This document shows, in pieces, positions 10,412 to 21,071 of a DNA stretch of 64,000 nucleotides (positions are counted from its first letter, which is position 1; the number at the start of each line of letters is the position of its first letter). Origin of the DNA: an uncultured Spirochaetota bacterium (GTDB lineage: Bacteria > Spirochaetota > Spirochaetia > SZUA-6 > Fen-1364); NCBI GenBank assembly GCA_963820525.1, contig CAWGAA010000001.1, forward strand, positions 1,408,001 to 1,472,000, in the 5' to 3' direction. Under the pieces are notes generated by a model. It searched no databases, was not told where the DNA came from, and worked only from the letters and a program-made list of their open reading frames with translations. The position numbers and the translations under genes are program-made.

Positions 10412-11113
10412 TTACGGTTTCCCGGATCCGATCGAGACCGTGCGCTTGTAGCTGGCCTCCATATGCGCGCGCATGGCGCGAAACGCCATTTCAGGATTTT
10501 TCTCCCGGATCGCCTTGAGGATCTGGGAATGCTCCCTGAACGCCTTTCGGTGATCCTCGATTGTGCGGGGGGCGTAGCGGAGAGTCTTGACGATGGCTTC
10601 CACGATGACGGGCATGATTCTCATGATGACGGGGTTCCTTGTCGCCCTTGCGATGCTCCCGTGAAACTCCAGCTCGACGTCCACCCAGCGCTCGTCCCGG
10701 GTCATGATGCCCGCCATCTTCTCCAAAAGCGCCTCCAGTCTCTCCACGTCGCCCTTGACCGCGCGCTCGGCGGCCAGGCGGGCCACCTCCGGCTCCAGGA
10801 TTCGTCGCGCCTCCATGAGGGACAGCGGCAGATCGCGCTCCGGGAGAAAGTCCAGCCCGAGGGGATCGTTGGCGACCCCGGGATTCTTCATGACGAAGGT
10901 TCCCTTGCCCCGTACGATCTCCACGATATTCTGGGAGACGAGGCTCTTGACCGCCTCCCGGACGGTCGGCCTGCTCACTCCAAAGAGTTCGGCGAGCTGC
11001 ATCTCATTGGGCAGCTTATCCCCGGCCTTCAGCTTCTGGCCTCGGATCAACGCCTTGATGTGGTTGGCGGCTTCGCGCGAGAGGTGACTCTGAGTGGTGA
11101 GTTTCTTGTACAT
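10412..11113 (-). CDS. GntR-family (FadR subfamily) transcriptional regulator
   Basis: GDKLPNE..LAELFGVSRPTVREA winged HTH plus an FCD domain (FHGSIA..NP, EH..I). Confidence 0.95.
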   Translation of the reverse strand: MYKKLTTQSHLSREAANHIKALIRGQKLKAGDKLPNEMQLAELFGVSRPTVREAVKSLVSQNIVEIVRGKGTFVMKNPGVANDPLGLDFLPERDLPLSLMEARRILEPEVARLAAERAVKGDVERLEALLEKMAGIMTRDERWVDVELEFHGSIARATRNPVIMRIMPVIVEAIVKTLRYAPRTIEDHRKAFREHSQILKAIREKNPEMAFRAMRAHMEASYKRTVSIGSGKP

Positions 11114-11186
11114 GGTGCTACCCTACCGGGGGCCTTTCCGGCGGCCGGGCCGCCCATATTTCCGCCGCTGTCCACGGCGGCCAGGT

Positions 11187-11214
11187 TTGACAACAGACGA
11201 CAAACGAGTATGAT
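11187..11214 (+). promoter_or_regulatory. Sigma70 promoter of kdgK-eda with a degenerate copy of the operator
   Basis: TTGACA-16 nt-TATGAT; the first 13 nt (TTGACAACAGACG) are identical to the dctP promoter. Confidence 0.7.
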
Positions 11215-11269
11215 AGGACGCCAGTCCCATGACGGCTGATCTTCCCTTCACTGAATATGGAGGTTAAAC

Positions 11270-12400
11270 ATGGACGATCTAAAAATCAAGAAGGTAGAGG
11301 ACTGCCGCTATGACGGGGTTTCCCTGGGCGAGGTGATGATGCGGATCGATCCGGGAGACGTGCCGACGGCGCGGGCGCGCAGCGCCCGCATCTGGCACGG
11401 AGGCGGGGAGACCAATGTGGCCGAGGGGTTGTCCTCCTGCTTCGGGCTGCGGACCGCCGTGGTGACGGCCCTCGTCGACGACGGCGTTGGGCGAAACATC
11501 GAGTGCCAGCTCCGGGAGGCCGGGGTCGACACCTCGCACATCATCTGGTATGCCACGAAGGGCTCCGGCAAGCTCGTCACCGACGGCAAGGGCACTCTCC
11601 ACAATGGCATCAACTTCACCTGGAAGGGCAAGGGGGTTCTGCCGTCGATCACCGAGTACTACCGCGCACACACCCCGATCCGTGAGATCGAACCCGGGGA
11701 CGTGGACTGGAAGGGTCTCTTCGCGCAGGGGGTTCGCTGGTTCAATACCGGGGGAATCTACAACTGCATCTCGCCGTCCTCCACGCTCGTCGCGCGGGAG
11801 GCGCTGAAAGCGGCGAAGGATGCGGGCACCGTCACCGCCTACGATCTGAACTACCGCTCGAAGGTCGAGCCGAACAAGGAAAAGGCGCGGGAGAACAATC
11901 GCGGAGTGGTTCCGTTCGTCGATTTCCTGGCGGGCAACCAGAGTGACTTCGAGGACTCTCTCGGCGAGGAATGCAGGAAAGTGGGAAAGGATCAACCCTT
12001 CGAGCATTGGCTGGATGCGTACTCCGAGATGCTGCGGCGGGTGGCCAAGAAATACCCCAACCTCAAGCTGATAGGAACCCAGCTGCGCGCGGCGTTGAGC
12101 GCGGACAGGATCAACTGGGGCGCCGTGCTCTACGACCCTTCCGAAGACAAGATCCACCTGGCGGCGGTCCGCGAAGGGGTGGAGATAATGGACAGGACGG
12201 GCGGCGGGGATTCGTTCGCCTCCGGCGTTGCGGCCGCCCTGATGAAGGGGAAATCCCTCGCCGACGCGGTGCAGTGGGGCGCCGCACACGGCATCTGCGT
12301 GCAGGAAACGCCGGGAGACGTCTCTCTGGTGAGGCAGGGGGACGTGGAGGCGGAGGTCGCCCGCGCGCTGAAGGGCGGCGGTGTGAGCGCCCTTCGGTAG
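11270..12400 (+). CDS. kdgK: PfkB-family sugar kinase, 2-keto-3-deoxygluconate kinase-like
   Basis: GEVMMR, GGGETNVA, YDLNYR and DRTGGGDSFASG motifs; adjacent to an Eda-like aldolase. Confidence 0.8.
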   Translation: MDDLKIKKVEDCRYDGVSLGEVMMRIDPGDVPTARARSARIWHGGGETNVAEGLSSCFGLRTAVVTALVDDGVGRNIECQLREAGVDTSHIIWYATKGSGKLVTDGKGTLHNGINFTWKGKGVLPSITEYYRAHTPIREIEPGDVDWKGLFAQGVRWFNTGGIYNCISPSSTLVAREALKAAKDAGTVTAYDLNYRSKVEPNKEKARENNRGVVPFVDFLAGNQSDFEDSLGEECRKVGKDQPFEHWLDAYSEMLRRVAKKYPNLKLIGTQLRAALSADRINWGAVLYDPSEDKIHLAAVREGVEIMDRTGGGDSFASGVAAALMKGKSLADAVQWGAAHGICVQETPGDVSLVRQGDVEAEVARALKGGGVSALR

Positions 12401-12428
12401 GCGGAGCGGAGTCGAGAGGAGAAAAACC

Positions 12429-13193
12429 ATGGCGGGATACAGAAGGGACCGGAAGCGGGTGGATGCCGCGATGCGGAAGAGCGGAGTGTGCGTCGTGATG
12501 AACAAGAACCACGTCACGAAGCCCGAGCACCTCGTGACGACAATGCAGGCAGTATACGAGGCCGGGTACGTTGCGGAATGCACTTTCCGCATTGACGCGG
12601 CCCTCATCCGTGAGGCGATGCAAGAGCTTACGAAAATCCGTGACAGGATGAGCGGCGAGCGGCCGTTCGTTCTCGGCGTTGGAAGCGTGATCAACCCCCG
12701 GGAGCTTGAGTCTGCCATCGATATGGGCTTCGACATGATCGTAGCGCCGGCGAACGTGATGGGGGGATGCGGAACCGGGGCGGATTTCGTGCGAATCGGG
12801 CACAAGGCCGGGGTATTCTGCGCACCCGCGGTGTTCACCCCGACGGAGCTCAACTACTTCATCGAAAGGGACGACGGCCTGGAGCCCGACGCGATCAAGA
12901 TCTTCCCCGCGGGCTCCCACGGGCCGAAGGGCGTGGCGGACCTCCTGGCTCCGTTCGTTCGCGACAGGCACAAGGGACGCATCGTCATGCCCACGGGCGC
13001 GGTCGACTTCGTCACCGGTCCCCAGTACATCAAGGCAATATCCGAGCGCGGCTATTTCCCCGTGCTGGGAATGTCGGCTCCTCTGAAGCTGGTGGAGACG
13101 GAGAAAAAACCCGGGGACGCAGACGTGGTGCGGAGATCCCTGGAGGATTTCACCAAGAAGCTGGCGGCGGCGAAGGCCGAGCTGGGCATGTAG
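12429..13193 (+). CDS. eda: KDPG/KHG aldolase-like protein (divergent)
   Basis: ECTFR, GVGSV, FTPTE, KIFPA (Schiff-base Lys) and MPTG motifs. Confidence 0.7.
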   Translation: MAGYRRDRKRVDAAMRKSGVCVVMNKNHVTKPEHLVTTMQAVYEAGYVAECTFRIDAALIREAMQELTKIRDRMSGERPFVLGVGSVINPRELESAIDMGFDMIVAPANVMGGCGTGADFVRIGHKAGVFCAPAVFTPTELNYFIERDDGLEPDAIKIFPAGSHGPKGVADLLAPFVRDRHKGRIVMPTGAVDFVTGPQYIKAISERGYFPVLGMSAPLKLVETEKKPGDADVVRRSLEDFTKKLAAAKAELGM

Positions 13194-13202
13194 ATACGGA
13201 AA

Positions 13203-13228
13203 CGGGGAGGCGGCCGTCTGCCTCTCCG
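13203..13228. terminator. Hairpin between convergent genes
   Basis: CGGGGAGGCGG-ccgt-CTGCCTCTCCG stem (with G-U pairs) between the two stop codons. Confidence 0.55.
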
Positions 13229-13239
13229 CGGCTTCAATT

Positions 13240-14214
13240 TCAACGCGCGAGCACGCTCGGATTCACGCAGGACAAGGGCGGTTTACCCGAAAGCACCAGC
13301 ACCGCGTTTCGCGCGGTGGAGCGCTGAAGCTCCGCTTGAGATTCCTCGCTGTACCACGCCATGTGATCGGTCAACACCACATTTGTCAGCTTGAAAAGCG
13401 CGCAATTCTTCTTCGGGGGTTCGGGCTCGTAGACATCGATGCCCACAGCCGCGATCTGGCCCGTCTCGAGCGCGGTGACCAGCGCGTCGGGATCCACAAC
13501 CTTGCCGCGGGAGGTGTTGACCAGAATCGCGGTGGGCTTCATCCGTGCGAACTGGCCCGGTCCGATCATGTGGAGGGTCTGATCGTTGAGGGGCGCGTGC
13601 ACGGATATGAAATCCGCCTGGGCGCACAACTCGTCCAGCTCCACGCGGCGAACCCCGTGCGCCGCCGCCTCCGCGTCCGTGACGTAGGGATCGAAGATCA
13701 ACACCTCCGCAAGGCCGAACCCGCTTACTTTGCGGCGAAGCGTCCGGGGAATCGCCCCGAAGCCGACAAGGCCCAAAGTCTTTCCCGCGATGCGGTGGAC
13801 CGGCTCCTTGGACCCGATGTCCCACAGGCCGCTTCGCACCTGGCGGTCACGGCTCGCCGTGCGGCGGACGCAGCTCAACAGAAGCGCGAGGGCGTGATCG
13901 GAAACCTCCTCGTTGCAGTACCCACGGACATTGCACACCGGGATCCCCCTCTCGGTCGCCGCGGGGACGTTCACGTTGTCCACGCCGACGCCGTAGCGGG
14001 AGATGACCTTGCAGCGGCTCATCGCGGCTATCGCCTCTTTGCCAACGGGCGCCATCCGCGTGATGACCCCGTCGGCTTCGCGGCACGCCTCCGCCACGTC
14101 GGCTTCGGTCTTGCATTCGCTGAGGATGAGCTCGACTTCCCCCAGCGCGGCAAGCTCCTTGCGCTCCGGCTCATACGTCGCGTAGCCAAGATCGGTGACT
14201 ACAATCCGCAGCAT
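13240..14214 (-). CDS. D-isomer-specific 2-hydroxyacid dehydrogenase (SerA/CtBP-like)
   Basis: RYGVGVDN, GLVGFGAI, VNTSRG, DVYEPEP and DHMAWYS motifs. Confidence 0.9.
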   Translation of the reverse strand: MLRIVVTDLGYATYEPERKELAALGEVELILSECKTEADVAEACREADGVITRMAPVGKEAIAAMSRCKVISRYGVGVDNVNVPAATERGIPVCNVRGYCNEEVSDHALALLLSCVRRTASRDRQVRSGLWDIGSKEPVHRIAGKTLGLVGFGAIPRTLRRKVSGFGLAEVLIFDPYVTDAEAAAHGVRRVELDELCAQADFISVHAPLNDQTLHMIGPGQFARMKPTAILVNTSRGKVVDPDALVTALETGQIAAVGIDVYEPEPPKKNCALFKLTNVVLTDHMAWYSEESQAELQRSTARNAVLVLSGKPPLSCVNPSVLAR

Positions 14215-14309
14215 GTCGGCACCCTCTCTCCGCGCCGCTTGCAGGCGCATCGCCCGGCTTAAGCGGCGGCTGGAATCCTTGCGCGCCTCTCTATCGCTCT
14301 TTCTTCTAT

Positions 14310-14341: not shown

Positions 14342-14395
14342 CCCATGGGTGACCACGAGCCACCTGCTTTCCATTGATGCGGCCAGGAGGGAATT
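14342..14395 (+). repeat. Copy 2 of the 54-bp direct repeat; orphan 3' gene fragment (frame closes at TGA 14433-14435)
   Basis: Encodes the same PWVTTSHLLSIDAARRE peptide; all 6 mismatches versus 1168-1221 are synonymous third positions. Confidence 0.9.
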
Positions 14396-14524
14396 ACCCC
14401 AAATCGCGGCTCGAGGGCGGCGCCCCCGCCGGTGAGACAAATCCGATGAAGCGCATCCCCAGCCCTCCAATGAAGCAAGCACACCGTTGTGCAGCGCGAG
14501 CCGCCGGGCGAGGCGCAGCATCCG

Positions 14525-14553
14525 TTGTGCGATGGAAAATCATCGACTATAAT
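14525..14553 (+). promoter_or_regulatory. Sigma70 promoter of the gene at 14602
   Basis: TTGTGC-17 nt-TATAAT, followed by an AAGGAG RBS before ATG 14602. Confidence 0.65.
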
Positions 14554-14601
14554 GAAAGGCGCTATCGACTCACCGCCGTTCTTATCCGGAAAGGAGTGCC
14601 G

Positions 14602-15270
14602 ATGCAGCCCATAAGCTTCAACCTCGCCGACCTGGGACTGGGACAGTGGATTGTCATCGGCTTGAGCGTTCTGGTGGGAGTCTGGTTCGTCGCGGGAATC
14701 GCGGTCAACAGGAGAGTGGGGCGAAGGGCGAGCGCCTGGCTCGCCTCAGGCCTGGATGGGTACACGTGCGGCCAGCCGAGCTGGGTGGACCTGGCCACCG
14801 CCGCGGTAGTGACGAAAGCCGCGCGTCCGGCACTTCCCCTGGAAAGGATTGAGGCGATTTTAGCATTGGAGAGGAGAGAGAACCTTCCTCTCTGGCTTTT
14901 CCAGCACGCGGCTGGAAAACGGGACAGCGTGATCCTGCGCGCGAATCTGAAGAAAAAGCCGGTTTTCGAGGCGCATCTGATTCCTTCAAGTGAATATGCG
15001 CAGATTGCCGCGTATAGTCACCGCGAGCCGCCGCTTCAGAGGGGTGAAGATCGAGATGGATTCACGCTATTCGTCGGCGGAGATGCGAGCGCGCCGGCCA
15101 TCCAGGCCCTTGAAGCGCTCAAGGAGCGTTTCAAAGGATCGCTCATCAGGGTGAGCGTGCGCGGCGAAAGCCCGCACCTGCTTTTGCACGTGAGGCTCGT
15201 CGCGCTGCGCGATGCCTCACCGGCTGTCGCGTTGGCACTGGACGAGATAGCCCGAAAGAGTCAAGCGTAG
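14602..15270 (+). CDS. Single-pass membrane protein resembling CCDC47/PAT1 (DUF1682)
   Basis: N-terminal TM followed by G-x3-N-R..A-x-W and ERIEAILALERRENLPLWLF..KRDSV. Resemblance to CCDC47 was judged by eye. Confidence 0.55.
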   Translation: MQPISFNLADLGLGQWIVIGLSVLVGVWFVAGIAVNRRVGRRASAWLASGLDGYTCGQPSWVDLATAAVVTKAARPALPLERIEAILALERRENLPLWLFQHAAGKRDSVILRANLKKKPVFEAHLIPSSEYAQIAAYSHREPPLQRGEDRDGFTLFVGGDASAPAIQALEALKERFKGSLIRVSVRGESPHLLLHVRLVALRDASPAVALALDEIARKSQA

Positions 15271-15297: not shown

Positions 15298-16275
15298 TTA
15301 TCCGAACAGAAGCCCGGCGGTGCGCTCCAGCATGGGGATGCCCCTGATCTCCGTTTCGAACAGCGGGAGGACTGCCCGCACCCTTTCGTCGAAGAGGCTG
15401 TCGATCTGCTTCATGTACTCTTCCTGCATGGCGACCCTGTTCTTCACGAAATCGGGGATGCCGGCGCCCAGGTCCGTGCGGTCGATCTTCATGTTGACGA
15501 TCACTCCGCCCACGGGGATCCCGAAATCCTTGAACCAGTTGATGAAACGGGTCACCACTGCGATGGGCAGGGCTTCCGGCAGGGTGATGAAAAAGAACGA
15601 GGTGAGCGCTTCGTCCGTGAGGAGCTTCTTCGCGTTGCCCATCCTCTCCCGCAGGCTCACCAGGTATTCCATCAGGGGATCCTTCTCCTTCTTCTTCCTG
15701 CTGTAGGAGAGAAGGTCCTTCAGGCTCATGGCCTCCTCGCGGCTCTTGACCATCTTGTTGACCCACATGGCGTAGACTCCCGACATTCCAAGGAGCCGCC
15801 GGGCATTGGCGGTGGGAGCCGTGTCGAACACATAGGCCTCGTACTTGTCCTCGAACATGAGGTCGATCATGTTCTCGAACATGGCCGACTCCTCGAACGA
15901 AGGGTTCATGGTCGCGGACTCGACGAACTCGTCGGCCTTGGTCTTGAGCTCGGCGTACTTGAGGAACCACTCGATCTTCTCCCGTATCTCCTTTTTGGAT
16001 TTTTCTATCGTGTCGTGCGTGTCGATTTCATAGGCGGACAGGTTGGGATGGCCCGGTATCTGCGTGGGTTTGCCGAACACGTCGAGGTCGAGCATGCCCG
16101 ACAGCGAGTGCACGGGGTTCGTGGAGGCGAGCAGGGTCCTCTTGCCCTGCTGTGCGCACCACAGGGCCGCGGCGCCGGCGAGCACGGTCTTCCCCACCCC
16201 TCCCTTGCCGCCGAAAAACAGGTACTTCAATCCCTTATTTGCAGCCAGGTACTGGCGCATGGTTTTTCCCGTCAT
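15298..16275 (-). CDS. ArsA/Get3/TRC40-family ATPase, subunit B (switch I Asp replaced by Asn)
   Basis: GGKGGVGKT, STNPVHSLS, DTAPTAN and IVN motifs. ATG at 16275 overlaps the upstream stop (ATGA) and has a GGAGG RBS. Confidence 0.9.
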   Translation of the reverse strand: MTGKTMRQYLAANKGLKYLFFGGKGGVGKTVLAGAAALWCAQQGKRTLLASTNPVHSLSGMLDLDVFGKPTQIPGHPNLSAYEIDTHDTIEKSKKEIREKIEWFLKYAELKTKADEFVESATMNPSFEESAMFENMIDLMFEDKYEAYVFDTAPTANARRLLGMSGVYAMWVNKMVKSREEAMSLKDLLSYSRKKKEKDPLMEYLVSLRERMGNAKKLLTDEALTSFFFITLPEALPIAVVTRFINWFKDFGIPVGGVIVNMKIDRTDLGAGIPDFVKNRVAMQEEYMKQIDSLFDERVRAVLPLFETEIRGIPMLERTAGLLFG

Positions 16276-17251
16276 TGCTTGCCTCCGAACAGCGTTTCCG
16301 CCATCTTCTCGATCATCGGCAGCCCCGTGATGTCCCGCTCGAACTCCGGCACCTGGGCGAGGACTTCCCGACCGAACATCAAGTCTATCTGCTCCAAGTG
16401 GCCCTTCTGCATCCGCAGGCGGTTTCTCAGGTACACCGGGATATCCTGGTTGGCCAGCTCCCGCGGGATCACCCGGTTGACGATGTACCCCGACAGCGGA
16501 ACGTTGTATTTTGCGAACATCCCCGCGGCCTTCTTGGTGTCGATGATGATCATCTCCTCGGGAATGAGGACAAAGAAGAAAGCGGTCTTCTGCTTGTCGG
16601 TGAGGATGCCGGACGACATGTTGATCCGGCGCTTGATGAACTGGAGCTCTTTCAGGATCTGGTCCTCCTCGCTTTCCTTTTCCCGCTTCATTACCGCGGC
16701 AACCTGGGAATACTCCTTCATCTCCGCGCGCAATGCGGTAATCTTGTCTATCCACTCGTCGTAGACCGACGCCATGCTGAGGTAGTACAGGGCGTGCCCC
16801 AGGGGCACGAGGTCGTAGATGTAGTAGTCGTATTGGCCGCCCACAACGATGTCGACCACCGCATCGAAGATGGCGCTTTCCTCCATGGCGGGCTCGGCGG
16901 CCGCGGCCTGGATATAGTTCTCGATGTCTTCGGGGACCTTGTCCAGGCCGTACATGTCGAGGATCTTCTTTCTGATCTCATCCTGGTAGTCCTTAATGCG
17001 CTTGTCCGCGTCGATCTCCTGCGCATAGAGGTTGGGGATGATCTCCACGGGCCCTTTCCGAAGATGTCCTTCTGGAAGATGTCGGAGAGGCTCGCCTGCG
17101 GATCCACGGAGAATACCAGCACCTTTTTGCCCTGCTTGGCCAGCCAGTATGCGGTGGTGGCGCTGAAGGTGGTCTTGCCCAGCCCGCCCTTGCCGCCGAA
17201 CATGAGGTAACGGCGGTCGGGGTAGGTTTCAAAGAATTTGCGCAGCGACAT
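16272..17251 (-). CDS. ArsA/Get3/TRC40-family ATPase, subunit A; 1-nt frameshift at ~17050
   Basis: GGKGGLGKTT, SVDPQASLSD, DLVPLGH and IVNRV motifs. Adding one base to the G3 run at 17049-17051 restores ..FGKGPVEIIPNL.. Confidence 0.9.
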
Positions 17252-17272: not shown

Positions 17273-17566
17273 TCAGGCCAATGCGTCGGTGAGGTCTTTC
17301 TCCCTCAGCATGCGCCGCTTCCAGGTGGAAATCTGGGGCACCACGTAAGGCAGGAGGCGCAGACTGTAGTATGGGGGAAGGATGGGAACGCCCAGCAGGT
17401 CTCCCATGGTGATGAGGATGAATAGATGCTCCATGCTGCCGCGGGTCTTGAGGGCGAAGCGGGCCATGTCGTGCCCGGCCATGCCGTACAGCACGTTCTT
17501 GACCCCCTCCATCAGCTTGCCCTTCTTTTTTTCTTCAGGCTTCTCCTGCGATTTCTCTTCCGGCAT
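17273..17566 (-). CDS. Small CstA-associated protein, paralog 2 (97 aa)
   Basis: AAGGAG RBS; core LFILITMGDLLGVPILPPYYSLRLLPY is shared with the neighbouring paralog. Confidence 0.85.
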   Translation of the reverse strand: MPEEKSQEKPEEKKKGKLMEGVKNVLYGMAGHDMARFALKTRGSMEHLFILITMGDLLGVPILPPYYSLRLLPYVVPQISTWKRRMLREKDLTDALA

Positions 17567-17580
17567 GGTCACTCCTTATT

Positions 17581-17913
17581 CTATGTTATTTCCTGGTCGC
17601 ACAGATCCGTCAGATCCCGCGGGCGTGAGAGGCTGGTCCGCCAGTCTTCGAGGCGGAACGCAACGTAGGGCAAAAGCCGCAGCGTGTAGTACGACGGGAG
17701 CACCGGAACGCCCAGGAGGTCTCCAAAAACGAGCAGGATGAAGAGCTTCTCCCTCTGCCCCCGTTCCTTCTGGACGTCGCGCACCATCTCCCAGATCGTG
17801 GCGCCGTAGAGCATCTGCCAAACGGTGCGGACCGCTTTTTTCAGAAGAGAGCGGAGGCTCCGCAGCCTCCGCCCCCGTCGATCCGTCTTTCCCTCCCTCT
17901 CCCCCTGTCTCAC
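17581..17913 (-). CDS. Small CstA-associated protein, paralog 1 (start uncertain: GTG 17913 overlapping the cstA stop, or ATG 17814)
   Basis: Core LFILLVFGDLLGVPVLPSYYTLRLLPY..W...RDLTD matches paralog 2. Confidence 0.8.
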   Translation of the reverse strand: MRQGEREGKTDRRGRRLRSLRSLLKKAVRTVWQMLYGATIWEMVRDVQKERGQREKLFILLVFGDLLGVPVLPSYYTLRLLPYVAFRLEDWRTSLSRPRDLTDLCDQEIT

Positions 17914-19679
17914 GCGGGCTTCACGGAGGCTGACGCCTGCGCGCGATATTTCCTGAAAACCTTCAAGGCATCCCAGGCCAGGATGAGGCTCGCGGCGATC
18001 AGCACGAGGCACACGGCGCCGATGATGATGTTCGCCGCCATCACCTGACCCACGGCCTGCTTCTGCGCCGCCGCCAGCGCAGCAGCCTTCGGCAGGTTCA
18101 TGAACAGGGCCTCATAGGCCTTGTAGAGCAGGGCGCCGATGGTGGTGATGAACATGAAAACGAATGGCCAGAGCGTCCACTGGTATTTCTTGCCCTTCGA
18201 CATGAGCCATATGGTTGCCAGGAGGAGCGCAAGGGAAGCCATGAGCTGGTTGGCGGCTCCGAACACGACCCAGATCTGCAGGAAAGGCACGATCCAGATC
18301 AAAACGAGCGTCAGAACCAGTGCGAGCAGCGTTCCGACGTGCGCGTTCTTGAGCAGGGGAATCCTGTCTCCCAGCGCCTCGGCGCTGGCCACCCTCATGA
18401 ACCGCGCAACCAGGTACATGATTGTCAGAGCCATGATCGTGAGGAATACCGAGCCATAGGCGGTTCCGAAGCCGGCGCCCAGGATCTTGTCCAGCCCCCA
18501 CTGGTTCATGAAAGCCGACAGGCCCTTGGAGAACACCGCAGCCGCCGCGCCGGCGTTTTTGTAGCCCTGGAAGCTTCCGAATGCCACGGTCGCGGTGAGG
18601 AAGGCAATGATGGCGAAGAACATCTCGAAGAACATCGCCCCGCCGCCCACGAACAGGGCGTCGCTCTCCTTCTCGATCTGGCGCGCCGTTCCCGATGAGG
18701 ACACAAGGCTGTGCCAGCCGGAAACGGCCCCGCAGGCGATGGTGACGAAGAGGATGGGCCACAGGGGCCCCAGCCCGGGCACGGTGAAGGAGGTGAACGC
18801 GGGGAAATCCCCCATGCCCGGCCTCCAGATGAACAGCCCGATCAGGCCGCCGAGCACGCCCAGGGAGACGATCCAGAAGGACACGTAGTTGATGGGTTGG
18901 GCCCAGCGCCAGATGGGAAGCACGGCGCCAAAGTAGCAGATGACGATGACCATCAGGCTTCCGAGGAGCTTGGCCTGCGTGACGGAGAGGAAGACCCCCG
19001 GCCCGGTGGGAAGCTCCTTCGTGATGCCGAAGAGCCCCGTAAAGAAGGTCTTGACACCAGGCAGCGTCCCGACCCAGATGGCCACGAATGCCAGGACCAC
19101 CGTGATGACGGTGGTAAACAGGATGTCGACTTTCCACCGATAGGTCATCTGCCCGGCCAGCAATCCCACAATGATCACGAGGATAACCCCCAGGGGCACG
19201 GCGGGATTGATCAAGAGGCCGAAGCCCACCTGGGTGCCGAAGGCCCCCATGATCAGGAGCAGGTAGAAATAAATGAACATGATCAGGATTCCCCGGGAGC
19301 GCGGCGAGATGAGCTTGTAGCTGAGCGCCCCAAAGCTCTGCCCTTCTTCCCGGAGGCCAAGGATGATGCTGCTGTAGTCCTGAACCCAGCCAATGAAGAA
19401 AGTCCCGAAGATCACCCACAAAAGCGCAGGCACCCATCCCCACAGGACCGCCGTGATGGGCCCGATGATCGGTCCCAGGGCCGCGATGGACTTGAACTGG
19501 TAGCCGAAAAGGACATTGCGGTTGGCCGGCGTGAAGTCGACCCCGTCCATGAACATCTTCGCGGGTGTCGCCTTCTTGTCGTCCGGCTTGATGACCCTCC
19601 TGTCTATCGACTTCGCGTAGACAAAGTACCCGATGGCGATGAACGCCAATCCACATGCCAGGATCACCAATGCATTCAT
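17910..19679 (-). CDS. cstA: Carbon starvation protein A family transporter
   Basis: TPA..DGVDF, FKSIAALGPIIGP, WGWVPALLW, LFVTIACGAVSGWHSL and FGAANQL motifs; many TM helices; AAGGAGG RBS. Confidence 0.92.
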   Translation of the reverse strand: MNALVILACGLAFIAIGYFVYAKSIDRRVIKPDDKKATPAKMFMDGVDFTPANRNVLFGYQFKSIAALGPIIGPITAVLWGWVPALLWVIFGTFFIGWVQDYSSIILGLREEGQSFGALSYKLISPRSRGILIMFIYFYLLLIMGAFGTQVGFGLLINPAVPLGVILVIIVGLLAGQMTYRWKVDILFTTVITVVLAFVAIWVGTLPGVKTFFTGLFGITKELPTGPGVFLSVTQAKLLGSLMVIVICYFGAVLPIWRWAQPINYVSFWIVSLGVLGGLIGLFIWRPGMGDFPAFTSFTVPGLGPLWPILFVTIACGAVSGWHSLVSSSGTARQIEKESDALFVGGGAMFFEMFFAIIAFLTATVAFGSFQGYKNAGAAAAVFSKGLSAFMNQWGLDKILGAGFGTAYGSVFLTIMALTIMYLVARFMRVASAEALGDRIPLLKNAHVGTLLALVLTLVLIWIVPFLQIWVVFGAANQLMASLALLLATIWLMSKGKKYQWTLWPFVFMFITTIGALLYKAYEALFMNLPKAAALAAAQKQAVGQVMAANIIIGAVCLVLIAASLILAWDALKVFRKYRAQASASVKPA

Positions 19680-19907
19680 GATGCCCTCCTTTTTCCCATG
19701 TACTTCACGTATCGATGGCCAGGAACTATGCTTAAGCGGAGTATGTAGGGGATCTTCTTTTGAGGTTTTCACCTCCTGAAGTTTTGCTTGGGGGAACTCT
19801 ATCCCCATGTCAAGAAATGTGTATGATAATTCGTTTGTCGGGGAATAGTACCCCGGCTCCGGCCGTATTGCAAGTGCATTTTCTCGAGCAGGATACAGGA
19901 GCCATCA

Positions 19908-20504
19908 ATGAAAGAATCCTTGATCCTCCTTCTCACCGCGCTTCTCTTCGCGACCCTCTTCAATCTCCTGTGCATCCTGCGCCGGGAGGGAATCTCCCGG
20001 CGTTTTCTCCTGGAAACGGCTGCGATCACGATCGTTTTCGGGCTCCTGCCGATGTTCGGCGTGGCTCTTCACCCCATTGCGTTTCTAGCGATTCTCTACG
20101 TGCTCACGATGCGCGTGCGGCTTTTCATCGATTTGGGCAGCACCCTGGCGCGCCGGGGAAACCTCACCGCCGCAGGCAGGGCTTTTTCCCTTGCCGGGCG
20201 GCTCTGGCCCGACCCCGCCGGGGTTTTGATGGTGCGCCTCAATCAAGGGGCGTGCGCCCTTCAGCGCCAAGCTCCCGAAGAAGCGATTCCCCTGCTCCAG
20301 GGAGTGCTCGAGGCAGCCGAATCGGCGCGGCTTGGCATCAAGTACCGCTCCGCCTGTCATTACAACCTGGGCATCGCCTTCTGGCGGAAAGGCATGAGAC
20401 CGGAGGCCGAGCGGGAGCTGGAAGCGGTCCAGGATCTGTGGCCGGCCTCCACGTATGCTCGTAAGGCGGAAAAAACCCTGGAGAGGCTCCGCGAGGGCGG
20501 ATAA
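19908..20504 (+). CDS. Membrane-anchored tetratricopeptide repeat protein
   Basis: About 3 hydrophobic N-terminal segments followed by TPR-like helices (LGSTLARRG..A, HYNLGIAF..A). Confidence 0.75.
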   Translation: MKESLILLLTALLFATLFNLLCILRREGISRRFLLETAAITIVFGLLPMFGVALHPIAFLAILYVLTMRVRLFIDLGSTLARRGNLTAAGRAFSLAGRLWPDPAGVLMVRLNQGACALQRQAPEEAIPLLQGVLEAAESARLGIKYRSACHYNLGIAFWRKGMRPEAERELEAVQDLWPASTYARKAEKTLERLREGG

Positions 20505-20555
20505 GACCGGTCTGACCGGAAAGGCGCGCGAATGGAGCGCCGAAAGGGGAGAATC

Positions 20556-21071
20556 ATGTCAACTTCAGTTCTTGTGGCTTATGCCACGCGCTACGGCTCG
20601 ACGCAGGAAGTTGCAGGGGCAGTCGCGGAGAGGCTGCGAGAAAGCGGACTGGAGGCGGATATTCAGCCCCTGCGAAAAGTACGGGCCCTCGAAGGATACC
20701 GCGCGGTCGTGCTGGGGGCGCCGCTTTTCATGTTCCATTGGCACAAGGACGCACTCGCTTTCCTGTCTCGGCACCGGGAAGCCCTCACGAGGCGGCCGGT
20801 GGCCATTTTCGCGCTCGGCCCATTCCATGATGACGAGAAGGAGTGGCATGAAGTACGCGCACAGCTCGACAAAGAGCTTGCGAAGTTCCCCTGGCTTTCC
20901 CCAGTCGCTCATGAAGTATTTGGTGGAAAGTTCGATCCGGCGAGACTCCACTTCCCCTTGAATCTTCTGCCTGCCCTTAAAAAGATGCCGCAAAGCGATA
21001 TACGGGATTGGGCGGCGATTAAAACCTGGGCAGCCAATCTGGCCGCGACGCTTCAGCCTGATGCGCCATAG
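20556..21071 (+). CDS. Flavodoxin domain protein (HemG/Flavodoxin_5-like)
   Basis: VAYATRYGSTQEVA, FGGK and DIRDW motifs. Confidence 0.85.
   Translation: MSTSVLVAYATRYGSTQEVAGAVAERLRESGLEADIQPLRKVRALEGYRAVVLGAPLFMFHWHKDALAFLSRHREALTRRPVAIFALGPFHDDEKEWHEVRAQLDKELAKFPWLSPVAHEVFGGKFDPARLHFPLNLLPALKKMPQSDIRDWAAIKTWAANLAATLQPDAP

Follow-up and report, generated by a model that had tools for sequence, protein, structure and literature searches.

Two adjacent genes for ATPases of the Get3/ArsA family, here called subunits A and B, close a five-gene operon on the minus strand of a 64,000-nucleotide stretch of DNA (the window) from an uncultured Spirochaetota bacterium (contig CAWGAA010000001.1, positions 1,408,001 to 1,472,000). 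The operon runs from 19808 to 15298 in the order cstA-cstX2-cstX1-A-B and thus also encodes a CstA-family transporter and two small CstX proteins. The defining feature of the pair is an asymmetry at the switch I position, where A has the catalytic aspartate of the [ST][ST]DP motif (SVDPQA) and B does not (STNPVH), although B is still a family member by sequence. The best reading of this asymmetry, to which we assign a probability of about 0.65, is that A and B form a heterodimer with one hydrolytic site and one site that would bind ATP without hydrolyzing it.

Active-site motifs of the two subunits

Subunit B is read from an open frame at 15298..16275, on the minus strand like every operon feature given here, and its 325-residue translation scores 221.8 bits against PF02374 (cut-off 24.3) and 209.8 bits against TIGR00345 (cut-off 135). 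It aligns over its full length and with no large gaps, helical subdomain included, with the archaeal Get3 structures 3UG6 and 3ZQ6 (E ~4e-50). The P-loop GGKGGVGKT (16186..16212) carries both the signature lysine, Lys24, and the Walker lysine, Lys29, of an intradimeric Walker A motif; the first lysine of this deviant motif acts across the dimer (PMC10248533). Switch I (16108..16125) reads STNPVH, with Asn53, encoded by AAC at 16117-16119 (gtt on the plus strand), in place of the catalytic aspartate, and switch II (15805..15825) reads DTAPTAN, which differs from the canonical DTAPTGH by Gly to Ala and His to Asn. The equation of Asn53 with the catalytic aspartate comes from the alignment to the archaeal structures, in which STNPVH pairs with STDPAH, and the yeast numbering used below is that of the papers. 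In yeast Get3 this residue, D57, is catalytic and essential for ATP hydrolysis, and the D57N variant binds but does not hydrolyze ATP and so traps ATP-bound Get3 (PMC12506534), in agreement with what an earlier reading of the window from its letters and open frames (the sequence-only reading) had stated. The ArsA variant D46N/D364N is likewise non-hydrolyzing, and the switch I aspartates of ArsA anchor the attacking water (PMC12415280).

Subunit A (16272..17251; 325 residues if intact, but split over two frames in the window) is the consensus-like partner. Its P-loop, GGKGGLGKT (17171..17197), again holds the signature and Walker lysines of an intradimeric Walker A motif (Lys21 and Lys26), its switch I, SVDPQA (17093..17110), keeps Asp50 (GAT, 17102-17104), and its switch II, DLVPLGH (16794..16814), keeps Asp, Pro, Gly and His. 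The sequence-only reading had read all of these motifs correctly in both subunits, including the shared KGGxGKT P-loop with its signature lysine, and had gone on to call the two sites degenerate in complementary ways. That description holds for B. A, however, retains every residue known for catalysis (the switch I Asp and the switch II Asp, Gly and His), and its three departures in switch II, from T, A and T to L, V and L, are conserved; no catalytic role was found for these three positions, and the changes may alter communication between switch II and the helical subdomain. Complementary degeneracy is therefore an overstatement, as the A site is consensus-like and only B is degenerate: the motifs indicate one consensus-like site and one degenerate site rather than two half-sites completing each other.

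The asparagine of B is a fixed feature of its lineage. All 121 proteins compared (the query and its 120 best homologs, all at least 78% identical) have the same three B motifs, as do, P-loop included, 93 of 93 further relatives. In A, switch II is DLVPLGH in 118 of 120 proteins and DMVPLGH in two, and 117 of the 120 contain FSVDPQA; of the other three, two are N-terminally truncated, the window's own fragment being one of these. At the codon level, STNPVH occurs 90 times over 92 related loci, with the asparagine written AAC in 69 and AAT in 21 and an Asp codon in none, and SVDPQA occurs 88 times over 92 related loci, with the aspartate written GAC in 57 and GAT in 31. Logan contigs of four sequencing runs were also compared with the window, and those of X1, X3 and X4, from three studies, cover the asparagine codon: positions 16117-16119 are unchanged in all three, and X1 and X4 carry a C>G change at 16120 that is synonymous in the threonine codon next to the asparagine. 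From these comparisons we conclude that the asparagine is real and is kept by selection, since codons change synonymously while the amino acid stays fixed. The sequence-only reading had allowed that it might be a sequencing error; the codons, the contigs and the orthologs all speak for a genuine residue. Nor is B as a whole decaying, to judge from its strictly kept P-loop and an asparagine near the C-terminus, Asn261, shared by all 16 aligned sequences.

Scoring covered more than 8000 relatives of each subunit, in metagenome-assembled genomes labelled Chloroflexota and Spirochaetota. B is 73-83% identical between genomes with these two labels, and the module occurs in five of 31 genomes of the same order, the window's own genome counted. 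Such patchy occurrence among relatives, taken together with high identity across phyla, suggests horizontal spread of the module.

To place B within the wider family, its sequence was searched against 1.84 billion cluster representatives and the best 150 were aligned to the family profile. Among these representatives, 195 of 222 domain rows have D at the switch I position, 23 have N and 4 have another residue, while switch II has G at position 6 in 184 of 233 rows and H at position 7 in 196, so that STDPAH and DTAPTGH are indeed canonical for the family, as the sequence-only reading had assumed. Of the 23 asparagine rows, 21 are B-type proteins. Among B-type representatives at 35-44% identity the motif pairs become STNPIH/DTAPVAL, SLNPVH/DTAAVAN, SLNPDH/DTAAIGG and SLSTLH/DTASVVN, the last having lost the switch I motif entirely; the aligned sequences thus indicate that the catalytic motifs of this lineage erode further while its P-loop stays GKGGVGKT, with a single outlier, P0245. 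A-types at 39-45% identity have STDPQA/DMPPFGH and STDPSH/DTAPIGH, and another distant A-type has DMMPHGH as its switch II; neither the switch I Asp nor the D..P.GH pattern is lost in them. The outlier P0245, a singleton B-type on three contigs, has lost the Walker lysine (GKSSVGNT) and kept the signature lysine. We dropped it as support for the model, as its nearest relatives (62% identity) all have normal P-loops.

Asparagine at switch I also occurs outside the B lineage. Two fused two-domain ArsA-like proteins, P0299 and P0333, which are not close to it, carry the residue in one half only (SVNPAH and SINPSH), and half-dead pseudodimers have apparently evolved on more than one occasion. In many other two-domain representatives, one of the halves has D[LT]xPPG[LIV] where DTAPTGH is canonical.

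These data bear on the alternative that both sites hydrolyze ATP, with another residue, or CstX or CstA, compensating in B and the asparagine only slowing or gating its site in the manner of a timer. The strong constraint on the B P-loop and on the whole B sequence, evident in the cross-phylum identity given above, would suit such a role, as would the ArsA precedent of two sites that are both competent yet unequal (PMC12415280). Against it, both Get3 and ArsA lose hydrolysis when the corresponding Asp is changed to Asn (PMC12506534, PMC12415280), and the further erosion of switch I and switch II in distant B-types is what would be expected where selection for hydrolysis is absent. We consider this alternative unlikely.

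The frameshift in subunit A

In the window A is not one open frame, a point overlooked by the sequence-only reading. SVDPQA falls within the first 68 codons and DLVPLGH within the other 258, which are read in a different frame; the N-terminal fragment scores 71.0 bits against PF02374, and the C-terminal fragment scores 148.1 bits against the same profile and 152.6 bits against TIGR00345. The break falls at GGGCCC (17049..17054), which is one base short between 17051 and 17052. An additional A behind 17051 (plus strand) is present in the contigs of X1, X3 and X4 and restores ...GKGPVEII...; apart from this base, the five X3 contigs listed do not differ from the window. In addition, an intact 325-residue protein, P0123, matches the N-terminal fragment residue for residue, is 100% identical to the C-terminal fragment, and reads ...FGKGPVEIIPNLY... 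across the break, and a split A was found in none of the 79 orthologous genome loci. Given the unsplit orthologs, the extra base in three runs and the intact matching protein, the frameshift is probably an assembly error; it may also be a strain-specific mutation of the source organism. Programmed frameshifting, for which GGGCCCG fits the X XXY YYZ slippery pattern, was rejected, as the orthologs are in frame and the three runs have the extra base; the slippery heptamer is itself a product of the missing base.

The broken frame of A is also what could be said for a more general objection, that the asparagine or the entire pair is an artefact of sequencing error or of decaying pseudogenes. Yet the asparagine is present in every ortholog examined and is written with both of its synonymous codons, the contigs of three runs agree with the window at this codon and contradict it at the frameshift, and the orthologous A genes are unsplit (0 of 79). 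An artefact is thus extremely improbable.

Inherited pairing and the proposed heterodimer

The stop codon of A and the start codon of B overlap as ATGA (16272..16275), which is seen directly in the sequence. One A frame and one B frame are present in 79 of 80 related genome loci, the contig of the 80th beginning within B, and in a search of 31 related genomes all five that bear B have an A match directly upstream of it. The same arrangement holds in the 11 checkable B-type metagenome loci, where A lies upstream of B in every case, including two loci (L093 and L094) of a distant clade, and two adjacent CstX genes accompany the pair in seven of the 11. In one locus, L095, an additional CstX-like gene (L095:9921-10272, minus strand) lies some 3 kb past the downstream side of B, in the opposite orientation. 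Across the 80 genome loci the gene order is cstA-X-X-A-B in 57. This is cstA-X2-X1-A-B in 49 of them, and the other eight comprise seven in which the small genes are labelled differently and one in which cstA is in two pieces. The remaining 23 loci consist of 21 shorter pieces of the same order, one with B alone and one odd arrangement (CstA-X2-A-X1-B).

Phylogeny mirrors this arrangement. A maximum-likelihood tree (35 sequences, 327 columns) groups A-types and B-types into one clade each, both with 100% bootstrap support and with parallel sub-clades; the tree is rooted by midpoint only, on which the sister status of the two clades rests, and we claim no order of events from it. A contrast group is provided by nine CstX-linked loci with a single ATPase gene and one CstX gene each, of which eight have Asp at switch I and the ninth could not be assigned by alignment; four of these nine extend at least 1.8 kb downstream with no second ATPase gene, and the other five end too soon. 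Gene order and tree together indicate that A and B behave as an inherited pair, and the pairing fits the duplication of an ancestral homodimeric ATPase and its small partner into specialized halves.

The gene overlap, the constant adjacency of A and B and their matching subtrees lead us to favor a heterodimer. In the proposed mechanism the overlapping genes would yield A and B in roughly equal amounts, and the two subunits would form an ATP-dependent sandwich heterodimer of the intradimeric Walker A (Get3/ArsA) class, with two nucleotide sites held in the dimer interface. The A site, built from its own P-loop, Asp50 and the Asp...Gly-His of switch II together with Lys24 reaching over from B, would hydrolyze ATP. 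The B site, with an intact P-loop and Lys21 supplied by A, would bind ATP, but with Asn53 in place of the water-positioning aspartate and Ala-Asn in place of Gly-His it would hydrolyze ATP very slowly or not at all, and would keep the nucleotide as glue or as a sensor. The pair would most likely act on CstA through the two small CstX proteins. What the sequences show is the motifs, their conservation, the pairing and the genomic context; heterodimer formation, the division of labor between the sites and the CstA link are proposals that build on these. The sequence-only reading had gone further, to an obligate heterodimer that could couple CstA to cellular energy state; that the association is obligate would be an inference, and the energy coupling is speculation.

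The same gene arrangement must be weighed against a second possibility, namely that A and B are separate homodimers, A2 being a normal ATPase and B2 an ATP-locked clamp or holdase, which act in sequence in one CstA-linked pathway. Solved Get3 relatives, the archaeal ones among them, are homodimers, contact between A and B is proposed on comparative evidence, and each of the two CstX paralogs could serve one homodimer. We nevertheless regard this possibility as quite unlikely, for the ATGA overlap and the strict one-to-one adjacency tell against it, and B2 could never reset through hydrolysis. The signature lysine of B is also strictly kept; it would be useless for catalysis in B2 and would complete the A site in an A/B dimer.

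A more elaborate version of the heterodimer, which we think unlikely, casts A/B as a one-stroke motor whose ATP-loaded B site reads the ATP level and which docks through CstX onto CstA. Docking would involve the C-terminal parts of both DUF7990-like CstX proteins, which are basic and nearly invariant, and CstA, otherwise a proton-coupled carrier, would become ATP-gated or ATP-driven. The module would then correspond, in prokaryotes, to the docking of Get3 on its Get1/2 receptor, turned to the control of transport. In a complex prediction of A and B with CstX2 and CstX1, in which CstX1 was scored, the score was 0.00 against a mark of 0.32 and the fold of CstX1 was itself uncertain, which counts neither for nor against such a complex.

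Several points weigh against the asymmetric heterodimer itself. The "dead" B site is extrapolated from engineered mutants of other family members, and other residues could rescue it. Support for A-B binding is indirect, and two homodimers in a shared pathway would also explain why the genes are paired and inherited together; moreover, all loci were retrieved with B as the seed, so that the pairing counts cover B-containing loci. A fused A-B protein of this lineage is absent among the 150 best cluster representatives. The switch II change from Gly to Ala alone proves nothing, as it also occurs in families that keep the aspartate (DCAPTAE type). Finally, A is frameshifted in this assembly, and were the frameshift real, this organism would have a broken pair.

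In textbooks Get3/ArsA ATPases appear as symmetric or pseudo-symmetric dimers, and replacing the Asp by Asn is how they are routinely frozen in their ATP-bound state in the laboratory. In the pair described here, which is very widespread, nature has fixed this replacement in one partner, and the module adjoins CstA, a member of a transporter family about whose regulation little is understood. If a single hydrolytic site does drive the heterodimer, the pair would offer a natural system for asking what each site of the dimer contributes and a first handle on the coupling of CstA to ATP.

Operon setting and known systems

The gene at the head of the operon (17910..19808) matches PF02554 (E 3e-113) and encodes the CstA-family transporter. 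Its stop codon is overlapped, as GTGA, by the inferred GTG start of cstX2 (17581..17913), whose 110-residue product is a paralog of CstX1. The cstX1 gene (17273..17566), with an inferred ATG start at 17566 preceded by AAGGAG, encodes a conserved, DUF7990-like protein of 97 residues that has 58 invariant columns across 20 orthologs and an almost invariant stretch over its last ~70 residues. CstX1 reaches an Atlas feature score of 0.96 against DUF7990 (PF25952) clusters. Both small proteins match the NCBIfam "cory-CC-star protein" weakly and below cut-off, the match of CstX1 to NF041419 being 33 bits against a cut-off of 80, and the local Pfam copy gave no match.

Outside the operon, a 298-residue frame at 14374-15270 on the plus strand converges on B and has no Pfam or NCBIfam match. 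Farther past B, 10412-14250 encodes a GntR/FCD regulator, a PfkB kinase, a KDPG-type aldolase and a D-2-hydroxyacid dehydrogenase, and beyond cstA lie genes for a TPR protein (19908-20504) and a flavodoxin-domain protein (20532-21071), both on the plus strand.

The module belongs to a cluster of cstA, cstX and arsA-like genes described in 2010 by Castillo and Saier by comparative genomics (PMC2963123), with which it shares one-domain ATPases of ~330 residues whose genes stand in one operon together with cstA and a small cstX. Their survey noted tandem ArsA pairs in two organisms and duplicated CstX in a few, stated that the D of the SXD motif in single-domain proteins "can be substituted only by N", and proposed, on comparative grounds and with no experiments reported, that the ATPase energizes CstA. 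In the available text of that paper, however, the word "heterodimer" occurs 0 times, and a dead site or A and B types are not described. Our literature searches returned nothing beyond this paper: no paper on the Asp/Asn asymmetry and no experimental work on the pair.

The nearest solved structures are those of archaeal Get3 (3UG6 and 3ZQ6), which carry STDPAH and DTAPTGH. The CXXC zinc motif that Get3 has at its dimer interface was looked for in A and B, and no C..C was found in either. We know of no tail-anchored client for the CstA-linked pair. Among two-gene Get3-like systems, the nearest published one is mycobacterial BagA/BagB (Rv3679/Rv3680; PDB 6BS3-6BS5), likewise encoded by adjacent genes, whose products reportedly form a heterodimer. 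It is very distant (40.4 bits for NF053622 against 400, 28.6 for NF053621 against 521, and E 2e-6 for 6BS3_B) and, unlike the A/B pair, has no CstA context. Two papers that cite the BagA/BagB work confirm its operon and phenotypes (PMC10597346, PMC12216072).

The conventional arsenical pump offers another comparison for the two sites, although A and B are themselves not arsenic pumps by the evidence of their sequences: each has 325 residues, with no cysteine in A and one in B (residue 40) and thus no metalloid-binding cysteine triad, and the 97.1 bits of B fall far below the cut-off of 650 for TIGR04291, the fused ~580-residue pump profile. A conventional two-domain ArsA is encoded elsewhere in the same genome (G000:C1:1234695-1236575), with three PF02374 matches within one 650-residue frame. 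Like the proposed heterodimer, the ArsA pseudodimer has two homologous halves and two interface sites of unequal competence, and its switch II ties the nucleotide site to the substrate helices. In the symmetric closed state of ArsA the switch II residues His149 and His453 are stacked across the interface, and the second Thr of switch II contacts helix 6 (PMC12415280). It differs in being one fused chain of ~590 residues with a Cys triad and with Asp in both halves.

A dimeric ATPase in which one site hydrolyzes and the other holds ATP is also known from ABC transporters with one degenerate nucleotide site; the parallel is an analogy only, as the fold is unrelated and the sites are built from both subunits in a different way. 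Further counterparts of B are the Get3 D57N and ArsA D46N/D364N mutants, which have the same substitution at the same position as Asn53 and which bind ATP and close the dimer without hydrolysis. Those mutants are engineered and changed at both sites, whereas the substitution described here is natural and confined to one subunit, with the aspartate kept by its partner.

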